A DNA stretch of 44,586 nt, taken from IMG/VR virus record IMGVR_UViG_3300045689_000016; one strand, written 5' to 3'. The stretch is from a virus. Numbering within the stretch: position 1 is the first letter of the stretch; each line of letters opens with the position of its first letter. The notes under the pieces are model-generated. The model worked only from the letters and a program-made list of their open reading frames with translations. It ran no database searches and was not told the DNA's origin. Shown here piece after piece: positions 11,463 to 40,930 of the stretch. The translations under genes were made by a program, and so were the position numbers.

Positions 11463-12621
11463 TAACGTTCTCACCTCCTTTCGTTGTTTCTTCATAGTTC
11501 TTGGTTAAGAGTAGTTTCTTACCTTCACCATTTGGCAACGGATCTAAATCATAAACATCACGCACTTCATCACGATATATAGTTGCACTAGAAACTACCT
11601 TATCAATTTGAACAGCATCTTCGATAATACTTCTAGGAAGTACATTGGTAACTTTAAGACGTTCGCCTCTTACGTATCCAGCTTTAGTAATAATTCCAGA
11701 TGTTAATTCATCCTTAACTTTTTTAGCTAATGGCTCTGTAAAAGTTTTTCTCATAGCTTTGATATTAGAATCAAGCTCTAATTTTTCACCATAAATAAGC
11801 GCCGTAGGAATACCTATGGCGTTGGACACATCATCAATTAAAGATGATTTCATTTTATTCAATTCATCTAATGATTGGTTAGAAACACCTTGTTTATTAG
11901 TGTATTCTTCATACTCGAAACCCTTCATTTTAGGAACTATAGCAACTGAATTTTTACTGAAGGATTGATAAATTTTATCAATAAAACCTTGTAACCTTTC
12001 AGTTCTTGTTTTACCATTTTTATCTCTTTCCTCATTTACACTACCAGTTGTGTCGATAGAAACTGTTCCACGAATTTGATTGTTTCTCATGGCAACTTCA
12101 AGGATACGTCCAAACAATTCAGAATAATCATTGAACAACCCTTTTGTAAATCTTTCTAAGTTCTCATTGTTATACTCAAAATAAAGTACTTCTGACCGTC
12201 TAAAAGAACGTTTAAAAACATAATCTTTTACAGATACATTTGTAAATACGTCTTCATAGACTGCTTTTTCTTCCCTAGAGAAATCATCAGCTAACAATAA
12301 TTGGTTATCATCAGTAAAGATAATTAAAGCTTCATTTTCATCTAATAACCTGTAAAAGAACTTATACCAAAAAGTAGCCGCTGATGTGTCATTATTAGGT
12401 CTAACATTTAAAATGTACTCCCATTCAGGACCATCTTTGAAATCCTTAAACTTAATTTCCATCGTTGACATCGTTCTTGCTGCAAAGTCTAAGACAGTTG
12501 CTTTAGCCATGATTTTAAGATAAGAACGTTTGGCCGTTTCGTCACCAACAACAAAATCGGGAATCCAATCAGTTGGATCTTCATTTTTTATAGATGTTTT
12601 AAAGACATCAAATAAACTCAC
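11452..12621 (-). CDS. Portal protein (HK97 family)
   Basis: 389-aa ORF upstream of the protease. GTG start with RBS AAAGGTGGTGA. Confidence 0.8.
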   Translation of the reverse strand: MSLFDVFKTSIKNEDPTDWIPDFVVGDETAKRSYLKIMAKATVLDFAARTMSTMEIKFKDFKDGPEWEYILNVRPNNDTSAATFWYKFFYRLLDENEALIIFTDDNQLLLADDFSREEKAVYEDVFTNVSVKDYVFKRSFRRSEVLYFEYNNENLERFTKGLFNDYSELFGRILEVAMRNNQIRGTVSIDTTGSVNEERDKNGKTRTERLQGFIDKIYQSFSKNSVAIVPKMKGFEYEEYTNKQGVSNQSLDELNKMKSSLIDDVSNAIGIPTALIYGEKLELDSNIKAMRKTFTEPLAKKVKDELTSGIITKAGYVRGERLKVTNVLPRSIIEDAVQIDKVVSSATIYRDEVRDVYDLDPLPNGEGKKLLLTKNYEETTKGGENVNDS

Positions 12622-16921: not shown

Positions 16922-17769
16922 TTTTCTTTTTGTTTTATTTCTTCCTTTATATCTTCTAAAATACTTTCCAAAAATAATAAGTATAATCTATTTTTTTCTT
17001 TTTTAGCTTCTGGCATAGTTACAAAATATATAACCATTAATAAAATTATCAACACTAATAAAATGTAAATTAACGTATTTTCAAATAGATTTGTATTTTC
17101 AACTGTACTACCGAAAACTTTAAGCATAACTGTATAAATTTTAGGAATTCCTTCACTAATCCATGTTAAACCTGCAAATGATAGAATTATTGAAACAATT
17201 ATACTAGTCACATTTTTCTTTTCAGGTTTTGTTTTTAAATATAAAATCCAATTTTTCACTTCATTTAACATTTCATCTAAGTTTTCGCCATTTATATTTA
17301 TTAAAATTCCTTTTCTGATTTCTTTTTTTATTTCTTCAACTTTATGTGGAATATTTGCATCTTTTTCAAAATTCCCCTTAATTTTTTTTACTATTTCTTC
17401 TAATTCTGTCGTGTTGCCATTTAATTCATATCTTATAAAAAGATTCTTATCATTCAAATTTTTTATTTTTTTCTTTATTCGTATATCTCGAATATATGAA
17501 ATCACAATAAACAATATTGTCAAAATGCTATACAAGATAAAAATTGTAATTAAAGCTGATAAGATATAAATTGCTAAATATGATACATCTCTTACGGTCA
17601 TTGCAGAAATAAAATTAAAAACAAAAATAAATGCTATGATTAAGAACGCAATAATCATATTTTTCCAATTAAACATTTTCCTTCCTAATTTAAAAATATT
17701 TTCACTATTTATACTGTTACTTTCATTAAACAGAGCAACCACTCTCCTTTTCTCCAATAAAACTATCAT
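16906..17769 (-). CDS. Multi-pass membrane protein of unknown function (moron)
   Basis: 287-aa ORF, very AT-rich. It has hydrophobic helices at both ends and a charged central region. The start codon is uncertain; the alternative is the ATG at 17676. Confidence 0.65.
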   Translation of the reverse strand: MIVLLEKRRVVALFNESNSINSENIFKLGRKMFNWKNMIIAFLIIAFIFVFNFISAMTVRDVSYLAIYILSALITIFILYSILTILFIVISYIRDIRIKKKIKNLNDKNLFIRYELNGNTTELEEIVKKIKGNFEKDANIPHKVEEIKKEIRKGILININGENLDEMLNEVKNWILYLKTKPEKKNVTSIIVSIILSFAGLTWISEGIPKIYTVMLKVFGSTVENTNLFENTLIYILLVLIILLMVIYFVTMPEAKKEKNRLYLLFLESILEDIKEEIKQKEKNKNT

Positions 17770-17919
17770 ACCTAATTAAAGAAGATAAAGGAAGACATTT
17801 TATTAAAAAAAGAATAACAATATGTTATCTAACGATAATTATACACACTATTCAACCTATTACTTTATTCATATAAAAAAGCCTAGCCCTAAAAGAGCCA
17901 GACGTTTATTTTTAGATTA

Positions 17920-18315
17920 TTAAAATTCAGATTGATTTCTTGTCCATCTTGTTTCTGGTTTACTTGGTAAAATTAGTGTTACAAAAATTATTATTGATCC
18001 AACTATTGGAATTAAATAAAATAATATCCACCAATTACTATGATTCCTATCATGCAGTCTTCTGGCACGAACTGTGAAGTTAGCTAGCCAAATAAGTAAA
18101 CTTAGAATCGTAAATACAATAGTTATCATATTCCATTCTTTTATGATATTTGTCCCATCAGACATAAAATCAATATACCTATACGATCTAGTAACAACTG
18201 AATATAAAACTAATACAAAATAATTCAACAATTGCGGCCACCAATATTGAGCTCGAGTAGCAGTCCCATCCATTAGTGTCATGTTATTCCAATATTCTTT
18301 ATAAGCGTTTTTCAT
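17920..18315 (-). CDS. DUF805-family membrane protein (moron)
   Basis: The motifs TRAQYWW...RRLHDRNHSNWWILFYLIPIVG match the DUF805 signature. Confidence 0.75.
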   Translation of the reverse strand: MKNAYKEYWNNMTLMDGTATRAQYWWPQLLNYFVLVLYSVVTRSYRYIDFMSDGTNIIKEWNMITIVFTILSLLIWLANFTVRARRLHDRNHSNWWILFYLIPIVGSIIIFVTLILPSKPETRWTRNQSEF

Positions 18316-18517
18316 GAAAACACCTCCTTAAATTCTAGTTTAAAACTTATAAGGAGGATGTCAAGAATATTAACTCAAAAAAACAATCAATTAAAAAACC
18401 TTTTTTGTATTTTAGTAATTATAAAAGTAAAAAATAACAATAAAAGACATCTTAAACTTCTGTTACGTTTTAATTAAATAGGTTTTCATGTTCTAAAATT
18501 TATTAGTCATTATATTT

Positions 18518-18547
18518 AAATAAAAACACCTAAGGTTAGTTAGGTGT
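18518..18547 (-). terminator. Hairpin terminator; right copy of the 30-bp inverted repeat
   Basis: AAATAAAAACACCTAAGGTTAGTTAGGTGT. On the minus strand the stem is followed by UUUUUAUUU. It lies directly after the stop of 18556..19086. Confidence 0.75.
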
Positions 18548-18555
18548 TAGGTTAA

Positions 18556-19086
18556 TTAATCAATAGGAAATAGATCTTCAACATCTTCATAAGCTGCTTT
18601 CAACGCTTTTCCCTTTTCTTCATTCGTTAACTCTTTTGAATTAGCAATATTTCTCATTACGTCTTCAACTTTTACTTCTTCTACATCTTTTTTAAAATAG
18701 TCGGAGGTTACATCAACAGAAGTTTGAATAATTATACCTGTCAACGCTATCATAGAAGCTTGAATAATATTTTCATAAAAAGTATTTCTAGCAGCTACGT
18801 TTTTATCCCTTCTTTTTAACTCATCATCATTTATTCCTTGAGGATGAATTTCCGGCATTTTGTAAAGAATAAATATAAGTATCTCTCTTTGTTCTGCTGT
18901 TAAGTTTTTATCACGTTCAATAATTTTTTCTAAGTCATTAAAATTATTATTAACACACCAAGCAAATATAATGTTAGTTAATTTAAGATTATCAACACGC
19001 ACATTTGTAAGGTTATTTCTTTCAGATTGGTAAGCTAATTCTAAATCATCAATAGTAAAATCTAAAAAATTAAAATAATTGTTCAT
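18556..19086 (-). CDS. Hypothetical protein (moron)
   Basis: 176 aa counted from the ATG at 19086, which is preceded by AAAAGGAGAG. The ORF-track N-terminal extension to 19152 runs through a T-rich tract and lacks an RBS. Confidence 0.7.
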   Translation of the reverse strand: MNNYFNFLDFTIDDLELAYQSERNNLTNVRVDNLKLTNIIFAWCVNNNFNDLEKIIERDKNLTAEQREILIFILYKMPEIHPQGINDDELKRRDKNVAARNTFYENIIQASMIALTGIIIQTSVDVTSDYFKKDVEEVKVEDVMRNIANSKELTNEEKGKALKAAYEDVEDLFPID

Positions 19087-21959: not shown

Positions 21960-22033
21960 GCCGGTATAACTCAGTGGATAGAGTACCCCTCTCATAAAGG
22001 GGACTGTCGTGGGTTCAAATCCCACTACCGTAA
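21960..22033 (+). tRNA. tRNA-like gene with anticodon CAT (Met, fMet or Ile2-type) and a non-canonical acceptor end
   Basis: Hand-folded cloverleaf: D arm ACTC/GAGT, anticodon arm CCCCT-CTCATAA-AGGGG, T arm GTGGG-TTCAAAT-CCCAC. Acceptor pairs 3-70 to 7-66 are good, but 1-72 (G/A) and 2-71 (C/T) are mismatched. The variable loop has 6 nt and no CCA is encoded. Confidence 0.6.
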
Positions 22034-35594: not shown

Positions 35595-35908
35595 TTTGTG
35601 GTAGTTTGTGGTAAAAACACAAAAAACCCTTAAGAATACTTTAATACCAATCTTGGCGGACGGTAGTTAAATACTCTTAGGGCGTGTTTTCACAACTGAT
35701 TGTAACATACAACGATAAACATAAAAAGCAAACAAACGTTGTTATAACGGTTTGTAATGTACTTTTAAAAACTTTTATTTTGTGGTAAAAATTGGCATGA
35801 TACACCCGGATTACTCACTTTTTGTGGTAGTTTTGTGGCAGAAAAATGCGGTCAAAACACTTGGTAAATATAGATAAATTCGATCTATCACAATTTTCAT
35901 TTGTGGTA
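35595..35908 (+). repeat. attP region containing six direct TTTGTGG(T/C)A repeats; candidate integrase arm-type sites
   Basis: Copies are at 35595, 35605, 35779, 35821, 35832 and 35900, all in the same orientation. The region is non-coding and lies immediately downstream of int. Confidence 0.6.
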
Positions 35909-35934: not shown

Positions 35935-35964
35935 TTGATAAATACAAACAAACGTTCGTATAAT
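35935..35964 (+). promoter_or_regulatory. Near-consensus promoter TTGATA-18-TATAAT for 35994..36272
   Basis: The -35 is at 35935..35940 and the -10 at 35959..35964. The RBS GAGGTGA follows. Confidence 0.55.
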
Positions 35965-35993
35965 GTCACTAACAAATATACGAGGTGATTTAT

Positions 35994-36272
35994 ATGATAA
36001 ACAATCCAACTGGAATAGTAGACAAGATAAAACTGGTTACTTCTTTTCCTGATATGTTAGTTAGATTTTCTTTGATTGTTGGTGATGAAACTATCAATTG
36101 TATTTGTGGTGATACTTCTATATGTAACTCGCTACTGTTTTTAGAAGACGGTAAAACTAAAGTTGCTTTGTTTGGAATCTACAATAGTAAAAAGCAACTA
36201 GTCGTTAAGAAGATGTTTATCAAGAATCCTACGTCATTTGAGAAAGAGTTTGCTGTGAGGTGTTTAGCCTAG
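35994..36272 (+). CDS. Hypothetical protein (92 aa) next to attP
   Basis: The ATG at 35994 lies 6-7 nt after GAGGTG. The ORF-track start is a GTG at 35985. It has its own promoter and a downstream hairpin. Confidence 0.6.
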   Translation: MINNPTGIVDKIKLVTSFPDMLVRFSLIVGDETINCICGDTSICNSLLFLEDGKTKVALFGIYNSKKQLVVKKMFIKNPTSFEKEFAVRCLA

Positions 36273-36338
36273 AATCAAATAGTTTTTTAGCATCTCTTAC
36301 ATTATTTCATTAATTAGCAAAATTTTTAAATAGAAAAA

Positions 36339-36374
36339 TCGTATTACTAGATAGAACTCTGTCTAGTAATACGA
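36339..36374. terminator. Bidirectional hairpin between convergent genes
   Basis: 13-bp perfect stem TCGTATTACTAGA / TCTAGTAATACGA with a 10-nt loop. It is flanked by A5 on the left and TTT on the right. Confidence 0.65.
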
Positions 36375-36421
36375 TTTAAAATATAAATATTTATTATTTA
36401 AAATTATTATCGTTAATATTT

Positions 36422-36826
36422 TTAAGCATTTTCTTCATTTTGCTCTTTTAACATTTCCGTTAAGTTATAAACATTTGGAAATCCAGAAGCTGCTTCACAT
36501 AATTGAGAAATAATTAAACTTGCCTTACCGAGACCTGGCTTTAAAAACTCATTTCGTTCATTTTTTATCATTTCTTCAAAAGATAATCCTTTTTTGTTTA
36601 ACATTTCAATTTCAGTTATTAACGATAATTGGAATCTAAATTCTTCAACAGGAATGTCTATTTCTATTTTTACTGAAACAATGTTTTTTTCATCATATTC
36701 TGTGGAGTCATCCGCATACCCAGCAACAATACTAGCCTCTGAAATATTATCATCATCCAACAAACTCATCTGTGAGTAGTATATTTTATTACTTTTCAAG
36801 TCAAACATTGGTTCTAATTCAGACAT
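36422..36826 (-). CDS. Third gene of the cassette: acidic 134-aa protein, tentatively a SecB-like chaperone
   Basis: RBS AAAGAGGTG; 13-nt overlap with the upstream gene. The order of sequence elements and the acidic tail resemble SecB, but this comparison was made by eye from memory. Confidence 0.35.
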   Translation of the reverse strand: MSELEPMFDLKSNKIYYSQMSLLDDDNISEASIVAGYADDSTEYDEKNIVSVKIEIDIPVEEFRFQLSLITEIEMLNKKGLSFEEMIKNERNEFLKPGLGKASLIISQLCEAASGFPNVYNLTEMLKEQNEENA

Positions 36827-37344
36827 ATTTGCACCTCTTTTTTTGTTTTAAAATTTCTATTTTTAAATCTTTTATTAAATACTTCAGGAAGTGCTTTTAT
36901 ATCATCAGTTATACTAAAAACCATTTGTCTTTCATTTTTTGTTAAAAATATTGAAATTTTTACATCTTTATTTTCTTTCTCCACTTCACTAAATGTAAAT
37001 GACGCAACATTTCCTTTTAAATTTTGTGTTTCTAAAAAAGGTCTTCTGTGCTTGTATAAATCAAATTTAAAAATACTAGTATCAGTGTCTATTTTTCTTA
37101 TGATATTCTTCATGTTAGCAATAATATCGTAATACTGATCTATATTTTTATTCATTTCTCCAAATTCAAAATCTAAATATTCATTTACACTAAGATTAAG
37201 ATATCTAGATATCTCCTCAACACTTAAATCATTTATAAGGCGTAATTCTAAAATATCCGTAGACAATTCATTTTGTTTAGAAAATTGTTGTTCATATAAA
37301 TCGGGTTGATATTCCTTTAGTAGATTTTCAAAATTTGTATTCAT
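36814..37344 (-). CDS. Second gene of the cassette: XRE-type HTH protein with a long C-terminal extension (candidate antitoxin)
   Basis: The HTH is DLSVEEISRYLNLSVNEYLDFEFGE. The ATG at 37344 lies 9 nt after GGAG; alternative starts are at 37353 and 37359. It overlaps the upstream gene. Confidence 0.55.
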   Translation of the reverse strand: MNTNFENLLKEYQPDLYEQQFSKQNELSTDILELRLINDLSVEEISRYLNLSVNEYLDFEFGEMNKNIDQYYDIIANMKNIIRKIDTDTSIFKFDLYKHRRPFLETQNLKGNVASFTFSEVEKENKDVKISIFLTKNERQMVFSITDDIKALPEVFNKRFKNRNFKTKKEVQICLN

Positions 37345-37840
37345 TGTTGTCATCTCCAATCCACTTCAATCGTTCATTATAAGAAGAATGCACGATGCTA
37401 TATATACTATCTGTTTTTATTGCTGTGTTATCTGTTTGATCAGAATTATTATTATTATTTATTTTGGTAAAGCCAAATGTAAAGACAATACTATCTATAT
37501 CTACTTTATAGATAAAAAATAACAATCTTTTATGTTCATATTGACCATCAATTCTAACTTCGTAACTAAATTTATGATGATTTAGTTTCTTAATAATTTC
37601 TGCTCTTTGAAGTTCACCTAAAGAATTTTTTAAACTTAATTCTATAGGAAATTTTGCAGAAGTTCCATCTTTAAATATCAAATTACCATTTTTTGTAGAA
37701 TATCGCAAATTCAATTGCTTTAAAATTTGCATAAAATTTTTTATAAAAATCTCATCGTTATTTTTCAAATGAAATAAGACATAGTCTTTAGCAATTTCAA
37801 AATCTGAACAATCATTATAAATAATTGAATTAAATTCCAT
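37328..37840 (-). CDS. First gene of the cassette: 170-aa protein whose C-terminal half resembles Gp49 / HigB / RelE-type toxins (tentative)
   Basis: YEVRIDGQYEHKRLLFFIYKVDIDSIVFTFGFTK follows the ElRi..yRilyf..ivllhgFxKK pattern. The toxin-first order matches higBA. Confidence 0.4.
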   Translation of the reverse strand: MEFNSIIYNDCSDFEIAKDYVLFHLKNNDEIFIKNFMQILKQLNLRYSTKNGNLIFKDGTSAKFPIELSLKNSLGELQRAEIIKKLNHHKFSYEVRIDGQYEHKRLLFFIYKVDIDSIVFTFGFTKINNNNNSDQTDNTAIKTDSIYSIVHSSYNERLKWIGDDNNEYKF

Positions 37841-37854
37841 CTTTCCTCACCTTT

Positions 37855-37883
37855 ATTATATGCTAATAGCTATAATAGTACAA
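37855..37883 (-). promoter_or_regulatory. Promoter of the three-gene cassette (TTGTAC-17-TATAAT) with an overlapping imperfect inverted repeat
   Basis: The -10 is the reverse complement of ATTATA at 37855..37860. The -35 is the reverse complement of GTACAA at 37878..37883. The repeat TTATTATATGCTA / TAGCTATAATAG spans the spacer. Confidence 0.55.
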
Positions 37884-37942
37884 TAAGAAACGTTTTATGT
37901 CACTAGTTTCTTTATATTTTTTTGATAAGGATAAATAAAGCA

Positions 37943-37970
37943 ACCCCCAACTGATTCTTCAGTCGGGGGT
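37943..37970 (-). terminator. Intrinsic terminator ending the lysis operon
   Basis: The minus-strand RNA forms ACCCCCGACUGA-AGAA-UCAGUUGGGGGU, then UGCUUUAUUUAU. The single non-Watson-Crick pair is G-U on the minus strand and A-C on the plus strand. Confidence 0.75.
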
Positions 37971-38015
37971 TATTTGTTCCTTCATTTAAAACAGGGTTAC
38001 TATTAATATACAATA

Positions 38016-38723
38016 TTATTGAGGTTTAACATAACTTTTATTTAAAGTTACGTATGTATCACCTAGACCTGCGATTAAAGCATGTGTTGCACCATTAGGC
38101 ATCTTAACGATTTCTCTAACTGCAATTTTAGAACCTTTTTTAAAGAACCAAGTTGTGTCTTCTTTCGAAAAATCTCGATTGTAAGTTTTTAGATCCTGTA
38201 ATGCAACAAAATAATTACCAGATTGATAGTGATTATCTTCTGCTGGTTTAGTGCCCTTATCTTCTTGAATAATTTTGATTGGATCTAACCATGTACCGTC
38301 ATTTTTAAAAGCACTTTGTTGTGCAGCTAACCATTCTTTTTTGGTAATCCCTAAATGCATATGATTAGTCGCTCTATTTCCTATGGCTTGTCCCATTTTT
38401 ACATTTTGACCAACAGAAACCTTAATATCTGATGTACTAGTTCCAAATTCTTGATAAACTATATAATAACCATCAGTACCTCTAGTTACAATAACAGTAC
38501 CTAGTGCTTCATATCCTCTTGGAGCCCATCCAGCATAAATTACAGTTCCATCGTGTATAGCCAAAATCCTTTTATCTGGATATTTAGCTGAACCAAAATC
38601 AAATCCATCATGGAAGTAATCGCCGTATCCTGTTCTATCAAATTTTGTAAATCCAAATTGTTGTCCTTCTTCATAATAACCTAAGTAAGCTTTTACGTTA
38701 GGCCATCCCCAATATTTACCCAT
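38016..38723 (-). CDS. M23-family peptidoglycan endopeptidase with a C-terminal wall-binding domain shared with 38741..39424
   Basis: Contains HxxxD (HDGFD) and HxH (NHMHLG). No signal peptide. The C-terminal roughly 70 aa are paralogous to the C-terminus of the neighbouring lysozyme. Confidence 0.8.
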   Translation of the reverse strand: MGKYWGWPNVKAYLGYYEEGQQFGFTKFDRTGYGDYFHDGFDFGSAKYPDKRILAIHDGTVIYAGWAPRGYEALGTVIVTRGTDGYYIVYQEFGTSTSDIKVSVGQNVKMGQAIGNRATNHMHLGITKKEWLAAQQSAFKNDGTWLDPIKIIQEDKGTKPAEDNHYQSGNYFVALQDLKTYNRDFSKEDTTWFFKKGSKIAVREIVKMPNGATHALIAGLGDTYVTLNKSYVKPQ

Positions 38724-38740
38724 AATTACACTCTCCTTTT

Positions 38741-39424
38741 TTATTGTGGTTTAACATAATCTTTGTGCATTGTAACGTAAGTATCTAATAAGCCGCCTAA
38801 TTGTGCGTGACAAGCTCCTGTAGAAGCAAAAACTCGTTCTCTAACTGCGAATTTACTTCCTGCTTTAATGAACCAAGTATTATCATTTTTATCAAAACTC
38901 TTATTTCTAGGTTGTAAATCTTGTAACGCTACAAAATAACTTCCTGATTGGTAATAACTTGCATTAGGTGTTGGTCCTGTACTTGCTTTCATAAATAATG
39001 CCGCCTCCTCGTTTCTTCTATTTACTAAACCTGGTAAAGTAACTCCTCCAGCTTTATTATAAAGTTTCATTTCATCAGCAGCTTTTTGCCATTGTCTAGA
39101 ATTAATGTAAGTAAGTAGTGTTGTACCACTCAAAATATACGCTCCAAGATTAAATTGGAAACTAGCAAGTGCATCAAACTGATTTTGATTAAGCTGAGTA
39201 GTTACATAATTGTATGATCCATAAACATGCGATTTGATATCTTCTTTTAGAAACTGATCAGCTTGAGCTTGAGTAATTTTCATACCGGCATAAACGCCCT
39301 TAGTATGACCATAACCAATAGTCCAAACTCCAACAGAATCTTGGTAAGCTGTTAATCTAACACCCTCCCATTTTTTAATTAGGTTAATACCATTCTGCGA
39401 AATTGTTAAATTCTCATTTGCCAT
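38741..39424 (-). CDS. GH24 (T4-lysozyme-like) muramidase with the same C-terminal wall-binding domain
   Basis: IKKWEGVRLTAYQDSVGVWTIGYGHT is the GH24 catalytic signature. No signal peptide. The C-terminus YYQSGSYFVALQDLQPRNKSF...YVTMHKDYVKPQ parallels that of the M23 protein. Confidence 0.85.
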   Translation of the reverse strand: MANENLTISQNGINLIKKWEGVRLTAYQDSVGVWTIGYGHTKGVYAGMKITQAQADQFLKEDIKSHVYGSYNYVTTQLNQNQFDALASFQFNLGAYILSGTTLLTYINSRQWQKAADEMKLYNKAGGVTLPGLVNRRNEEAALFMKASTGPTPNASYYQSGSYFVALQDLQPRNKSFDKNDNTWFIKAGSKFAVRERVFASTGACHAQLGGLLDTYVTMHKDYVKPQ

Positions 39425-39922: not shown

Positions 39923-40930
39923 CTAACCTTTTTCTACTTTTCCATCTTTTAACATTCTTATTTGGATTGCTTCAATTTGTTTACCTTCAGTACCAGCTAC
40001 TCCGCCTTCTTCTTTCCAAGCTCCCCAACCTACATCAGCTGAATGAACTCTGTATTGAATGCGACGACCAGTTTTCAGCAAATTACCATTACTCGCAAAA
40101 CAAATTTGGTCAATCGCTTGAGATTTGCCTGTTGTTCCTGTTATCCCTTTAGGAACATTTACCCATTTACCATTTAGAATTCTGTAACTAGAACGAATTG
40201 AATCTGCTTTCTTATTCCACAATACTTCCACCGCTTCTAATTTTAGTGCTTTACCAGTTGTTCCAGCCGTAGCCTCAGTTCCTACAAATTTTTGCCAACC
40301 GATATTAGATACGTGACCTCGGTACCACAGTCCCATTTTTGCTCCTGCAGGTGTTTGGTTTTCGTTAGTAAATTTTTCACCAGTGATTGACTCAATAAAA
40401 CCTTTAGCTAATTGATCTAGTTCCTTATTGATAATAGTCATATCTCTTGAACTAGTAATAAACCCAATTTCAGTTAAACGATAGTTCAGACCTCTTTGGG
40501 CAGCTACGTTAAGATTTAAAAGATTACTTCGATAACTAATACCGTTAGTTTTAGAAACCCCGCCCCATAATCCAACAGTACGTTTGATTAAATTCGCCAT
40601 ATCCAAATCAATATTATCAGCCTTAAAACTTGAGCTGACTATTACATGTCCACCAGTAGCTGAAGAACCAGCTGCATCTTCATGATACTCACTTATAGTC
40701 GTGTAATAACTTGGACTAATAGAATACATTCCCCATCCATTTGCTGTTTCTTGAAACATATCTCTGTTACCCGTTGTATCAAAAAAGACGAATGAGTCTT
40801 TCGACTTATCCGCCCATTTCTTCATATAAGGATGTAGTTTCTTTCTATTAAAATCTCGCTCATTAGCTCCATTACCAACTGCACCAGGATCGCCTGCTCC
40901 ATGACCATAAATAATTAAGTGATTTGCCAT
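39923..40930 (-). CDS. Endolysin: N-acetylmuramoyl-L-alanine amidase (Amidase_3-like) with two C-terminal ChW-type repeats
   Basis: LIIYGHGAGDPGAVGNGANE and LTEIGFITS are amidase_3-like motifs. The repeats are NIGWQKFVGTEATAGTTGKALKLEAVEV and DVGWGAWKEEGGVAGTEGKQIEAIQI. Confidence 0.8.
   Translation of the reverse strand: MANHLIIYGHGAGDPGAVGNGANERDFNRKKLHPYMKKWADKSKDSFVFFDTTGNRDMFQETANGWGMYSISPSYYTTISEYHEDAAGSSATGGHVIVSSSFKADNIDLDMANLIKRTVGLWGGVSKTNGISYRSNLLNLNVAAQRGLNYRLTEIGFITSSRDMTIINKELDQLAKGFIESITGEKFTNENQTPAGAKMGLWYRGHVSNIGWQKFVGTEATAGTTGKALKLEAVEVLWNKKADSIRSSYRILNGKWVNVPKGITGTTGKSQAIDQICFASNGNLLKTGRRIQYRVHSADVGWGAWKEEGGVAGTEGKQIEAIQIRMLKDGKVEKG

Follow-up and report, generated by a model that had tools for sequence, protein, structure and literature searches.

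A putative HigBAC-type toxin-antitoxin-chaperone cassette, very divergent in sequence, between the lysis genes and attP of a temperate siphovirus

Identification of the cassette

The IMG/VR virus record IMGVR_UViG_3300045689_000016 (44,586 nucleotides, the whole of which is called the window here) contains a cassette of three translationally coupled genes, g1, g2 and g3, all on the minus strand within 36422..37840. The cassette, 1.5 kb in size, is a very divergent toxin-antitoxin-chaperone (TAC) module whose type is known, and not a new kind of system. We consider it likely, with a probability of roughly 0.78, that it is a functional HigBAC-type TAC, comprising a translation-inhibiting toxin and a chaperone-dependent helix-turn-helix (HTH) antitoxin, and expressed in the lysogen from its own promoter. 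About two thirds of that probability goes to anti-phage abortive infection or superinfection exclusion as the probable role, which is favoured by location and by precedent. The evidence consists of the gene organisation, the fold of g3, the remote homology of g1 and g2, and the co-occurrence of the three parts. The initial annotation, made from the sequence of the window, had suggested a TAC architecture, and this is supported by a predicted SecB fold for g3, a putative Gp49/HigB core in g1, and a putative gp48/HigA domain followed by an extension in g2. It had also allowed that the cassette could equally be an undescribed exclusion system; this alternative is not needed. The three genes, with lengths in amino acids (aa), are:

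37328..37840, minus strand: g1, 170 aa with an ATG start, putative toxin with a Gp49/HigB-type core
36814..37344, minus strand: g2, 176 aa counted from the ATG, putative antitoxin with a C-terminal extension
36422..36826, minus strand: g3, 134 aa, predicted SecB-like chaperone

The open reading frames were found at the coordinates first assigned to them, with overlaps of 17 nucleotides (nt) between g1 and g2 and 13 nt between g2 and g3. Sequences resembling a Shine-Dalgarno (SD) site are present upstream of the g2 and g3 starts, and the g2 start codon is backed by orthologues with the same MNTN... beginning. In TAC operons as described, the toxin gene comes first, the antitoxin second and the chaperone third, each overlapping the next by a few nucleotides (Sala et al., PMC3581621), and the toxin-first order and overlaps of 13-17 nt seen here fit that organisation. 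The SecB-like chaperone gene lies 3' of the antitoxin gene in the same operon, on the same strand and terminator-free in between.

Predicted SecB fold of g3

Structure prediction indicates that g3 is a SecB-fold protein. The AlphaFold2 (AF2) model, obtained from a 10-sequence alignment, has a predicted local distance difference test (pLDDT) score of 83.5 and a predicted template modelling (pTM) score of 0.74. It contains strands at residues 8-22, 32-37, 49-60 and 63-75, a long helix at 83-114 and a short helix at 122-133, matching the SecB topology, in which a four-stranded antiparallel sheet is accompanied by helix alpha-1 (long) and helix alpha-2 (short). When the model was compared with the PDB using Foldseek, ranks 1-16 were all SecB-fold proteins, with E values from 2e-4 to 3e-2 and probabilities of 0.98-1.0 except for two (0.97 and 0.93); at rank 17 the probability falls to 0.5. 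These matches include SecB of H. influenzae (1OZB, 1FX3) and of E. coli (1QYN, 5JTL), the solitary streptococcal proteins 2HNG and 2O2A, and 5MTW, in which Rv1957, the TAC chaperone of M. tuberculosis, is in complex with a peptide of the chaperone-addiction element (ChAD) of its antitoxin. The match to 5MTW_B has a query template modelling score (TMq) of 0.62, a root-mean-square deviation of 4.1 and a probability of 1.0. In the BFVD library of viral structures, the best g3 matches include phage proteins named SecB. The SecB-like order of elements that had been read from the g3 sequence at the outset is also that of the model.

At the sequence level, none of the 11 g3-family members matches the SecB Pfam family PF02556, and a profile search of PDB sequences with g3 found no SecB sequence. 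A tblastn search of g3 against phages gave chance-level matches only.

The putative toxin g1

Profile comparison suggests that g1 is an enlarged toxin, with a putative core of the Gp49/HigB type (RelE/ParE superfamily) at about residues 90-135; this agrees with the resemblance to Gp49, HigB and RelE toxins initially noticed in its C-terminal half. The g1 family, represented by 27 sequences, has invariant residues K84, E94, R96, R105 and K126, set in the motifs YE[IV]R[IL], R[IL]LFF and TFGFTK. When the members were scanned singly, 13 of the 27 matched the Pfam family Gp49 (PF05973), the best with an E value of 7.6e-4, and no other Pfam family was matched by more than one of them. All 13 matches are below the curated Pfam cut-off (P0003, for example, with an E value of 0.024, scores 15.1 bits against a cut-off of 23.9), and g1 of the window itself does not match the Pfam Gp49 model, the gathering threshold not being reached. 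Judged from these scans, g1 is a remote relative of Gp49 and not a member by the Pfam criterion.

Because hhalign, given N15 gp49 alone to compare with the g1 family, produced an in-register but non-significant alignment, a reference Gp49 profile was built from 22 non-redundant sequences from viral contigs, using N15 gp49 and S. pneumoniae HigB (PDB 6AF3) as seeds. The g1 family aligns to this profile with a score of 30.9 and a P value of 1.3e-4 (6e-6 in global mode). In this alignment the toxin core is covered by residues 91-132 of g1, and the residues E, R, R, F and K coincide: E94, R96, R105 and K126 lie opposite the E, R, R and K that are conserved in the Gp49 family, and YEIRId...R-lFF...GFtK pairs with ElR...R..yf...FvKK. 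In the controls, the maximum score among 100 column shuffles was 17.3, and the reversed alignment and unrelated families scored 11-14. The assignment of g1 rests on sequence profiles because its structure model is too poor.

In one g1 allele, P0002, which comes from a JGI contig of 2.8 kb, 17 residues (KFSYEVRIDGQYEHKRL) are missing in frame, and with them the invariant E94, R96 and R105. The deletion looks as if it inactivates the toxin, and the loss of the core gives a small hint that intact g1 is costly.

The putative antitoxin g2 and its extension

The g2 protein has an HTH domain at about residues 1-84 and a C-terminal extension of 92 aa (85-176), much as first annotated (an HTH with an extension of about 100 aa), and is putatively a HigA/gp48-type antitoxin. 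The family of its N-terminal domain was compared by hhalign with the gp48/HigA family, taken as the antitoxins encoded beside the harvested Gp49 toxins, giving a P value of 2.3e-5 and a score of 31.4, with a shuffle maximum of 20.3; weak HTH matches are also seen in Pfam and PHROG. Upstream of g3 there is consequently a HigBA-type pair as judged by remote profile matches, which have clean controls and lie below curated thresholds.

In characterised TACs, the ChAD is a C-terminal extension that renders the antitoxin aggregation-prone (Guillet et al., PMC6377645), and SecB favours aromatic and basic stretches (PMC6377645). The g2 extension is poorly conserved, 12% aromatic and rich in Lys and Arg, with several alternating-hydrophobic segments; among orthologues it measures 68-118 aa and is 7-14% aromatic, again rich in lysine and arginine. 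The g2 family splits into long forms of 146-203 aa and short forms of 84-101 aa, and the extension is missing from the short forms, which have no g3-like gene in the three contexts sampled. Its composition and this co-occurrence make the extension a candidate ChAD element.

Conservation of the triad

When the phage collection was searched by megablast, neither the cassette nor the surrounding 7 kb gave any match. A word-indexed protein search found four relatives of g1, and for g2 and g3 self-matches only; the g1 relatives lie in divergent versions of the same three-gene unit at loci L001 and L002/L003, the g3 of L002/L003 being only 22% identical. An exhaustive HMMER scan, with the three proteins concatenated as the query, yielded 68 proteins, of which about 24 correspond to g1, about 35 to approximately the first 80 residues of g2, and 9 to g3. 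When g1 alignments were used to search for related loci, viral and metagenome contigs gave no match and GTDB genomes the Vagococcus locus only, the deeper g1 alignments being too divergent for pattern extraction in this search.

The g1-g2-g3 triad is kept in the window, L001, L002/L003, Vagococcus allomyrinae (where it is chromosomal; L009 = L018), Enterococcus phage EH-TP1, L016 and L017. All seven long-form g2 proteins with known context are in triads of g1-like, g2-like and g3-like genes, and none of the three short-form contexts has a g3-like gene. The genes upstream of short-form g2 relatives (106 and 112 aa) are without the g1 core motif, their translations having been inspected by eye.

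This pattern bears on whether g3 might be a free-standing phage SecB-like chaperone, serving the folding or export of phage or host proteins and lying beside an unrelated HigBA-like or regulator pair. Such an explanation is very improbable. Solitary SecB-like proteins do exist in Firmicutes and in the C. difficile phage phiCD119 (PMC3581621), and the closest PDB folds to g3 include the solitary streptococcal 2HNG and 2O2A; but g3 and g2 share 13 nt, all the long-form antitoxins examined have a g3-like gene after them while none of the three short forms does, and the g3 family also follows an extended antitoxin of the MqsA-like type. TAC chaperones are known to go with HigA, MqsA and HicB antitoxins (PMC3581621), and the pairing of the g3 family with an extended MqsA-like antitoxin fits this modularity.

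The MqsA-like antitoxin in question is encoded at L007 1172..2685. It has 258 aa, with a zinc ribbon, an HTH_3 domain and a C-terminal extension of about 130 aa, and is followed by the g3-family gene; the first gene of the locus encodes 118 aa and has no Pfam match. L007 is probably an MqsRAC-type TAC that uses the chaperone clade of g3. Another locus, L011 2220..4431, encodes a short-form g2-like HTH protein of 93 aa, with 53% identity across the domain; after it come a gene of 103 aa, a protein with a cREC_REC domain and RtcB, an RNA ligase. Here the HTH domain of g2 is reused in a different module.

Points against a TAC, and the possibility of an undescribed module

Several results weigh against the interpretation of the cassette as a HigBAC-type TAC. 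Pfam, NCBIfam, PHROGs and PADLOC give no significant match for g1, g2 or g3 (in PADLOC-DB 2.0.0 there is no match even at E <= 10, either for these or for the neighbouring orf95), and profile searches of PDB sequences with alignments of the three proteins, g1 among them, returned no match. The hhalign probabilities are only 54% for g1 against Gp49 and only 76% for g2. For g1, AF2 modelling from an alignment of 4 sequences gave a pLDDT of 54.5, and the best Foldseek E value of the model is only 0.76. In addition, g1 exceeds typical Gp49 toxins in length by 50-65 residues. The three short forms of g2 also lack a g1-like toxin, and are not clean chaperone-less counterparts; and the proposal of a ChAD in g2, drawn from composition and co-occurrence, concerns a small sample (7 vs 3). 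Finally, the C-termini of long-form g2 proteins share a tail of K/R-E-V plus hydrophobic residues (for example at 36814..36840 in the window), which was set aside as a ChAD motif since it overlaps the SD sequence and start codon of g3; the conservation here may be at the nucleotide level rather than that of a protein motif.

Some of these points would suit a defence or regulatory module of a kind not yet described, where g1 is something other than a RelE-type RNase, its Gp49-like motif is due to chance or convergence, and its function lies in the family-specific N-terminal part. The absence of a significant match for g1 in curated libraries, its poor model, the 54% hhalign probability and the approximately 50-65 residues without a Gp49 counterpart can all be read in this way. 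Such a module is nonetheless extremely improbable, since the 13 g1-family members that match Pfam converge on one family, Gp49; the g1/Gp49 alignment keeps every invariant charged residue in register and clearly outscores the controls; the partners of g1 are of the cognate HigA and SecB types; and the g1 orthologue of phage EH-TP1 was annotated as a RelE/ParE toxin.

Comparison with known systems

One of the nearest known parallels is the M. tuberculosis TAC HigB1-HigA1-SecB(TA) (Rv1955-Rv1956-Rv1957), whose HigBA pair resembles N15 gp49-gp48 (PMC3581621). It shares with the cassette the toxin-antitoxin-chaperone order, the short overlaps, a gp49-type toxin, an HTH antitoxin with a C-terminal extension, and a SecB-fold chaperone. 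It differs in that g3 is only 7-8% identical to Rv1957, the cassette toxin has about 170 aa with extra segments, and no cassette protein is recognised by Pfam, including by the SecB and Gp49 models at threshold. The extension of about 90 aa is roughly twice the length of the M. tuberculosis ChAD, which is itself less than half of the 96-aa E. coli ChAD (Mets et al., bioRxiv 10.1101/2024.02.24.581848), and the cassette is found in a low-GC Gram-positive phage instead of a mycobacterial chromosome.

The HigBAC of E. coli NT1F31 likewise occupies a variable moron locus of a temperate phage and combines a HigBA-type unit with a SecB-like chaperone. Its ChAD of 96 aa compares with the 92 aa of the cassette extension, and both are aromatic-rich. 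Its slot, however, is downstream of cI, whereas that of the cassette has the lysis genes on one side and attP on the other; no sequence relationship is detectable; and the regular spacing of four aromatic motifs in the E. coli ChAD is not demonstrable in the g2 extension.

N15 gp49-gp48 and S. pneumoniae HigBA (6AF3) also have the toxin first, and their toxin core motif E-x-R ... R ... F-x-K and antitoxin HTH align with g1 and g2. In contrast to the cassette, both the chaperone gene and the antitoxin extension are absent from these pairs, and their toxins are of 100-140 aa.

Enterococcus phage EH-TP1 (PQ571301.1) has an orthologue of the whole triad in gp4-gp3-gp2, likewise located after the holin and endolysin. 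In relation to the window, its g1 is 40.5% identical, the N-terminal domain of g2 is 42% identical, and g3 is matched with an hhalign probability of 99.3%; its antitoxin extension is shorter, at 68 aa. The annotators of EH-TP1, using structure alignment, independently labelled the three genes as RelE/ParE toxin, XRE regulator and SecB, gene by gene and not as a TAC. No publication on phage EH-TP1 was found in the literature searched.

Promoter and candidate operator

The initial annotation gave the cassette its own promoter, TTGTAC-17-TATAAT, overlapped by an inverted repeat. A promoter belonging to the cassette is retained here, but a different site is the better candidate:

37875..37903, minus strand: best-supported cassette promoter, GTGACA (-35), a 17-nt spacer with TG at its end, TACTAT (-10)
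37853..37886, no strand assigned: imperfect palindrome, 19-nt overlapping arms with 74% complementarity, covering the -10 and start region

In a consensus scan the promoter has 9 of 12 consensus matches, and it leaves a leader of about 30 nt carrying the SD sequence. The pattern GTGAC[AT]-17-TA..AT is conserved 5' of g1 in four divergent cassettes (window, L001, L002 and L016), although the L001 and L002 proteins are only 54-61% identical, and because of this conservation GTGACA-17-TACTAT is preferred. The site TTGTAC-17-TATAAT is present (37883..37855), but its -35 matches the consensus at only 3 of 6 positions. Its TATAAT -10 ends 14 nt 5' of the ATG, so that a transcript from there would begin inside the SD sequence, and this -10 is not conserved in L002 or L016.

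The palindrome is real and overlaps the -10, as had been described, and it is a candidate operator to which the HTH antitoxin might bind. With an AT content of 75%, however, such a palindrome is unremarkable, and by itself it provides no evidence of an operator.

Genomic setting

The placing of the cassette between a lysis-operon terminator and a hairpin was confirmed, both structures being found:

37941..37972, minus strand: lysis-operon terminator, 14-bp stem with 7 GC pairs, T-rich tail
36339..36374, both strands: downstream hairpin terminator, 16-bp stem then a U-run, common to the cassette and the convergent orf95

The lysis-operon terminator insulates the cassette from the upstream operon. 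At the other end, the region 36320..36425 (106 nt), which contains the hairpin, has a folding z-score of -5.1, and 0 of 200 shuffles were equally stable. Upstream of the cassette are the lysis genes (amidase, lysozyme, M23 peptidase), and downstream the order is a convergent 95-aa open reading frame, attP, which is about 750 nt from the cassette, and the integrase just beyond. The window is 100% identical to an integrated copy, L004, down to 35676, where the junction lies inside the host tRNA-Arg(CCG) gene. The cassette is thus carried as a moron, in the slot between the lysis genes and attP that had been proposed for it, and its carrier is a temperate siphovirus of a low-GC Gram-positive host. 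The same position directly after phage lysis genes is seen in EH-TP1, L016 and L017, as well as in the integrated copies L004/L005; of the seven long-form contexts, five are placed in this way.

The cassette was originally described as more AT-rich than the phage core. The GC content across 36-38 kb is indeed 25-27%, against about 31-39% over most other parts of the window, but it is not unique in this, the stretch at 17-19 kb being equally low (23.5-27.5%).

Proposed mechanism and role

We infer toxicity, RNase activity, chaperone addiction, a trigger and a defence phenotype for the cassette along the following lines. By analogy, g1 would be a ribosome-dependent mRNA endonuclease, which g2 would neutralise, g2 probably being also the repressor of the operon. 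The g2 extension of about 90 aa would, like a ChAD, make g2 aggregation-prone and dependent on g3, which would bind the extension and keep the antitoxin functional. In the lysogen, the three proteins would be co-produced from their own promoter by way of translational coupling. If structural proteins newly made by an infecting phage, for instance, were to draw off the chaperone, as lambda gpV does with HigC in E. coli, the antitoxin would fail, the toxin would be freed, translation would halt and the infection would be aborted.

The precedent is provided by E. coli, in which prophage-encoded HigBAC and CmdTAC (the latter described in PMC11618068) protect against phages (Mets et al., bioRxiv 10.1101/2024.02.24.581848). 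In that work lambda gpV is sensed by the chaperone HigC, for which it competes with the 96-aa aromatic-patterned ChAD (bioRxiv 10.1101/2024.02.24.581848).

A TAC need not serve defence. The cassette might instead act in addiction and prophage stabilisation, or in stress-responsive growth control, with the stable toxin being freed by loss of the prophage or by stress-induced proteolysis. The founding TAC, Rv1955-1957 of M. tuberculosis, has been described as stress-responsive (PMC3581621, PMC6377645), and the chromosomal copy of Vagococcus allomyrinae is not visibly beside phage lysis genes, both of which would suit this role. We regard it as unlikely, in that the triads of the window, EH-TP1, L016 and L017 (together with L004/L005) are in the classic moron slot after the lysis genes, the cassette has its own promoter and terminator insulation, as in genes expressed in lysogens, and the prophage TACs that have been tested experimentally act in phage defence (bioRxiv 10.1101/2024.02.24.581848; PMC11618068). 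An anti-phage role for the TAC accordingly seems the better fit to its position.

Other features of the window

The attP core region is at 35676..35690 in the window; integration, seen in L004 at 12155..12226, is at the 3' end of the host tRNA-Arg(CCG) gene. The junction between phage and host is 11 nt into this gene, and the host flank is rpoN-cggR-gap-pgk-tpi-pgm-eno.

The neighbouring gene orf95 (35985..36272, plus strand, 95 aa) lies between attP and the cassette and matches phrog_15227 with an E value of 2e-20. A promoter-like site at 35935..35964 has the near-consensus sequence TTGATA-18-TATAAT, and the gene converges on the hairpin at 36339..36374 that the cassette uses. It looks like a second, independent moron.

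Among the lysis genes, the M23 peptidase and lysozyme are encoded at 38016..38723 and 38741..39424 on the minus strand, and have in common a C-terminal domain of about 70 aa (YQSG.YFVALQDL ... YVKPQ), which is presumably a shared cell-wall-binding module. With the Amidase_3/ChW protein at 39923..40930, the phage has three peptidoglycan hydrolases.

A second strongly AT-rich stretch, 17001..19000, may contain more acquired genes, and a phage-encoded tRNA-Met (CAT) gene is present at 21960..22033 on the plus strand. The first 100 nt of the window, though not the first 200, are repeated at its end, from which it follows that the window is a circularly closed, complete phage genome of about 44.5 kb.

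Significance

The cassette widens the range of HigBAC-type TACs to include temperate phages whose hosts are low-GC Gram-positive bacteria, and it has relatives in Enterococcus and Vagococcus. In E. coli, anti-phage TACs carried by prophages have been described before, and the current view is not overturned. Surveys of toxin-antitoxin and defence systems probably under-count TACs, because Pfam, NCBIfam, PHROGs and PADLOC miss sequences such as these; the family alignments from this analysis could seed hidden Markov models (HMMs) for finding more.

A further proposal is tentative, and on balance doubtful: that this is the first recognised TAC clade specific to temperate phages of Enterococcaceae-like Bacillota, held in the lysis-attP slot and invisible to HMM libraries, with an enlarged toxin that may add regulation or sensing and a chaperone that may sense the structural proteins of rival Gram-positive phages. 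The extra residues of g1, about 50-65 in number and conserved in the family, may serve regulation or sensing, a function not present in canonical HigB toxins. If the proposal is true, the cassette would be a natural, portable device for phage-against-phage exclusion, with a new trigger specificity.

Chaperone-based phage sensing has so far been demonstrated only in E. coli. Because it is small and self-contained, and has natural variants (long and short antitoxins, a toxin allele with the core deleted, and a chaperone paired with MqsA), the cassette is convenient for testing such sensing in Gram-positive bacteria.

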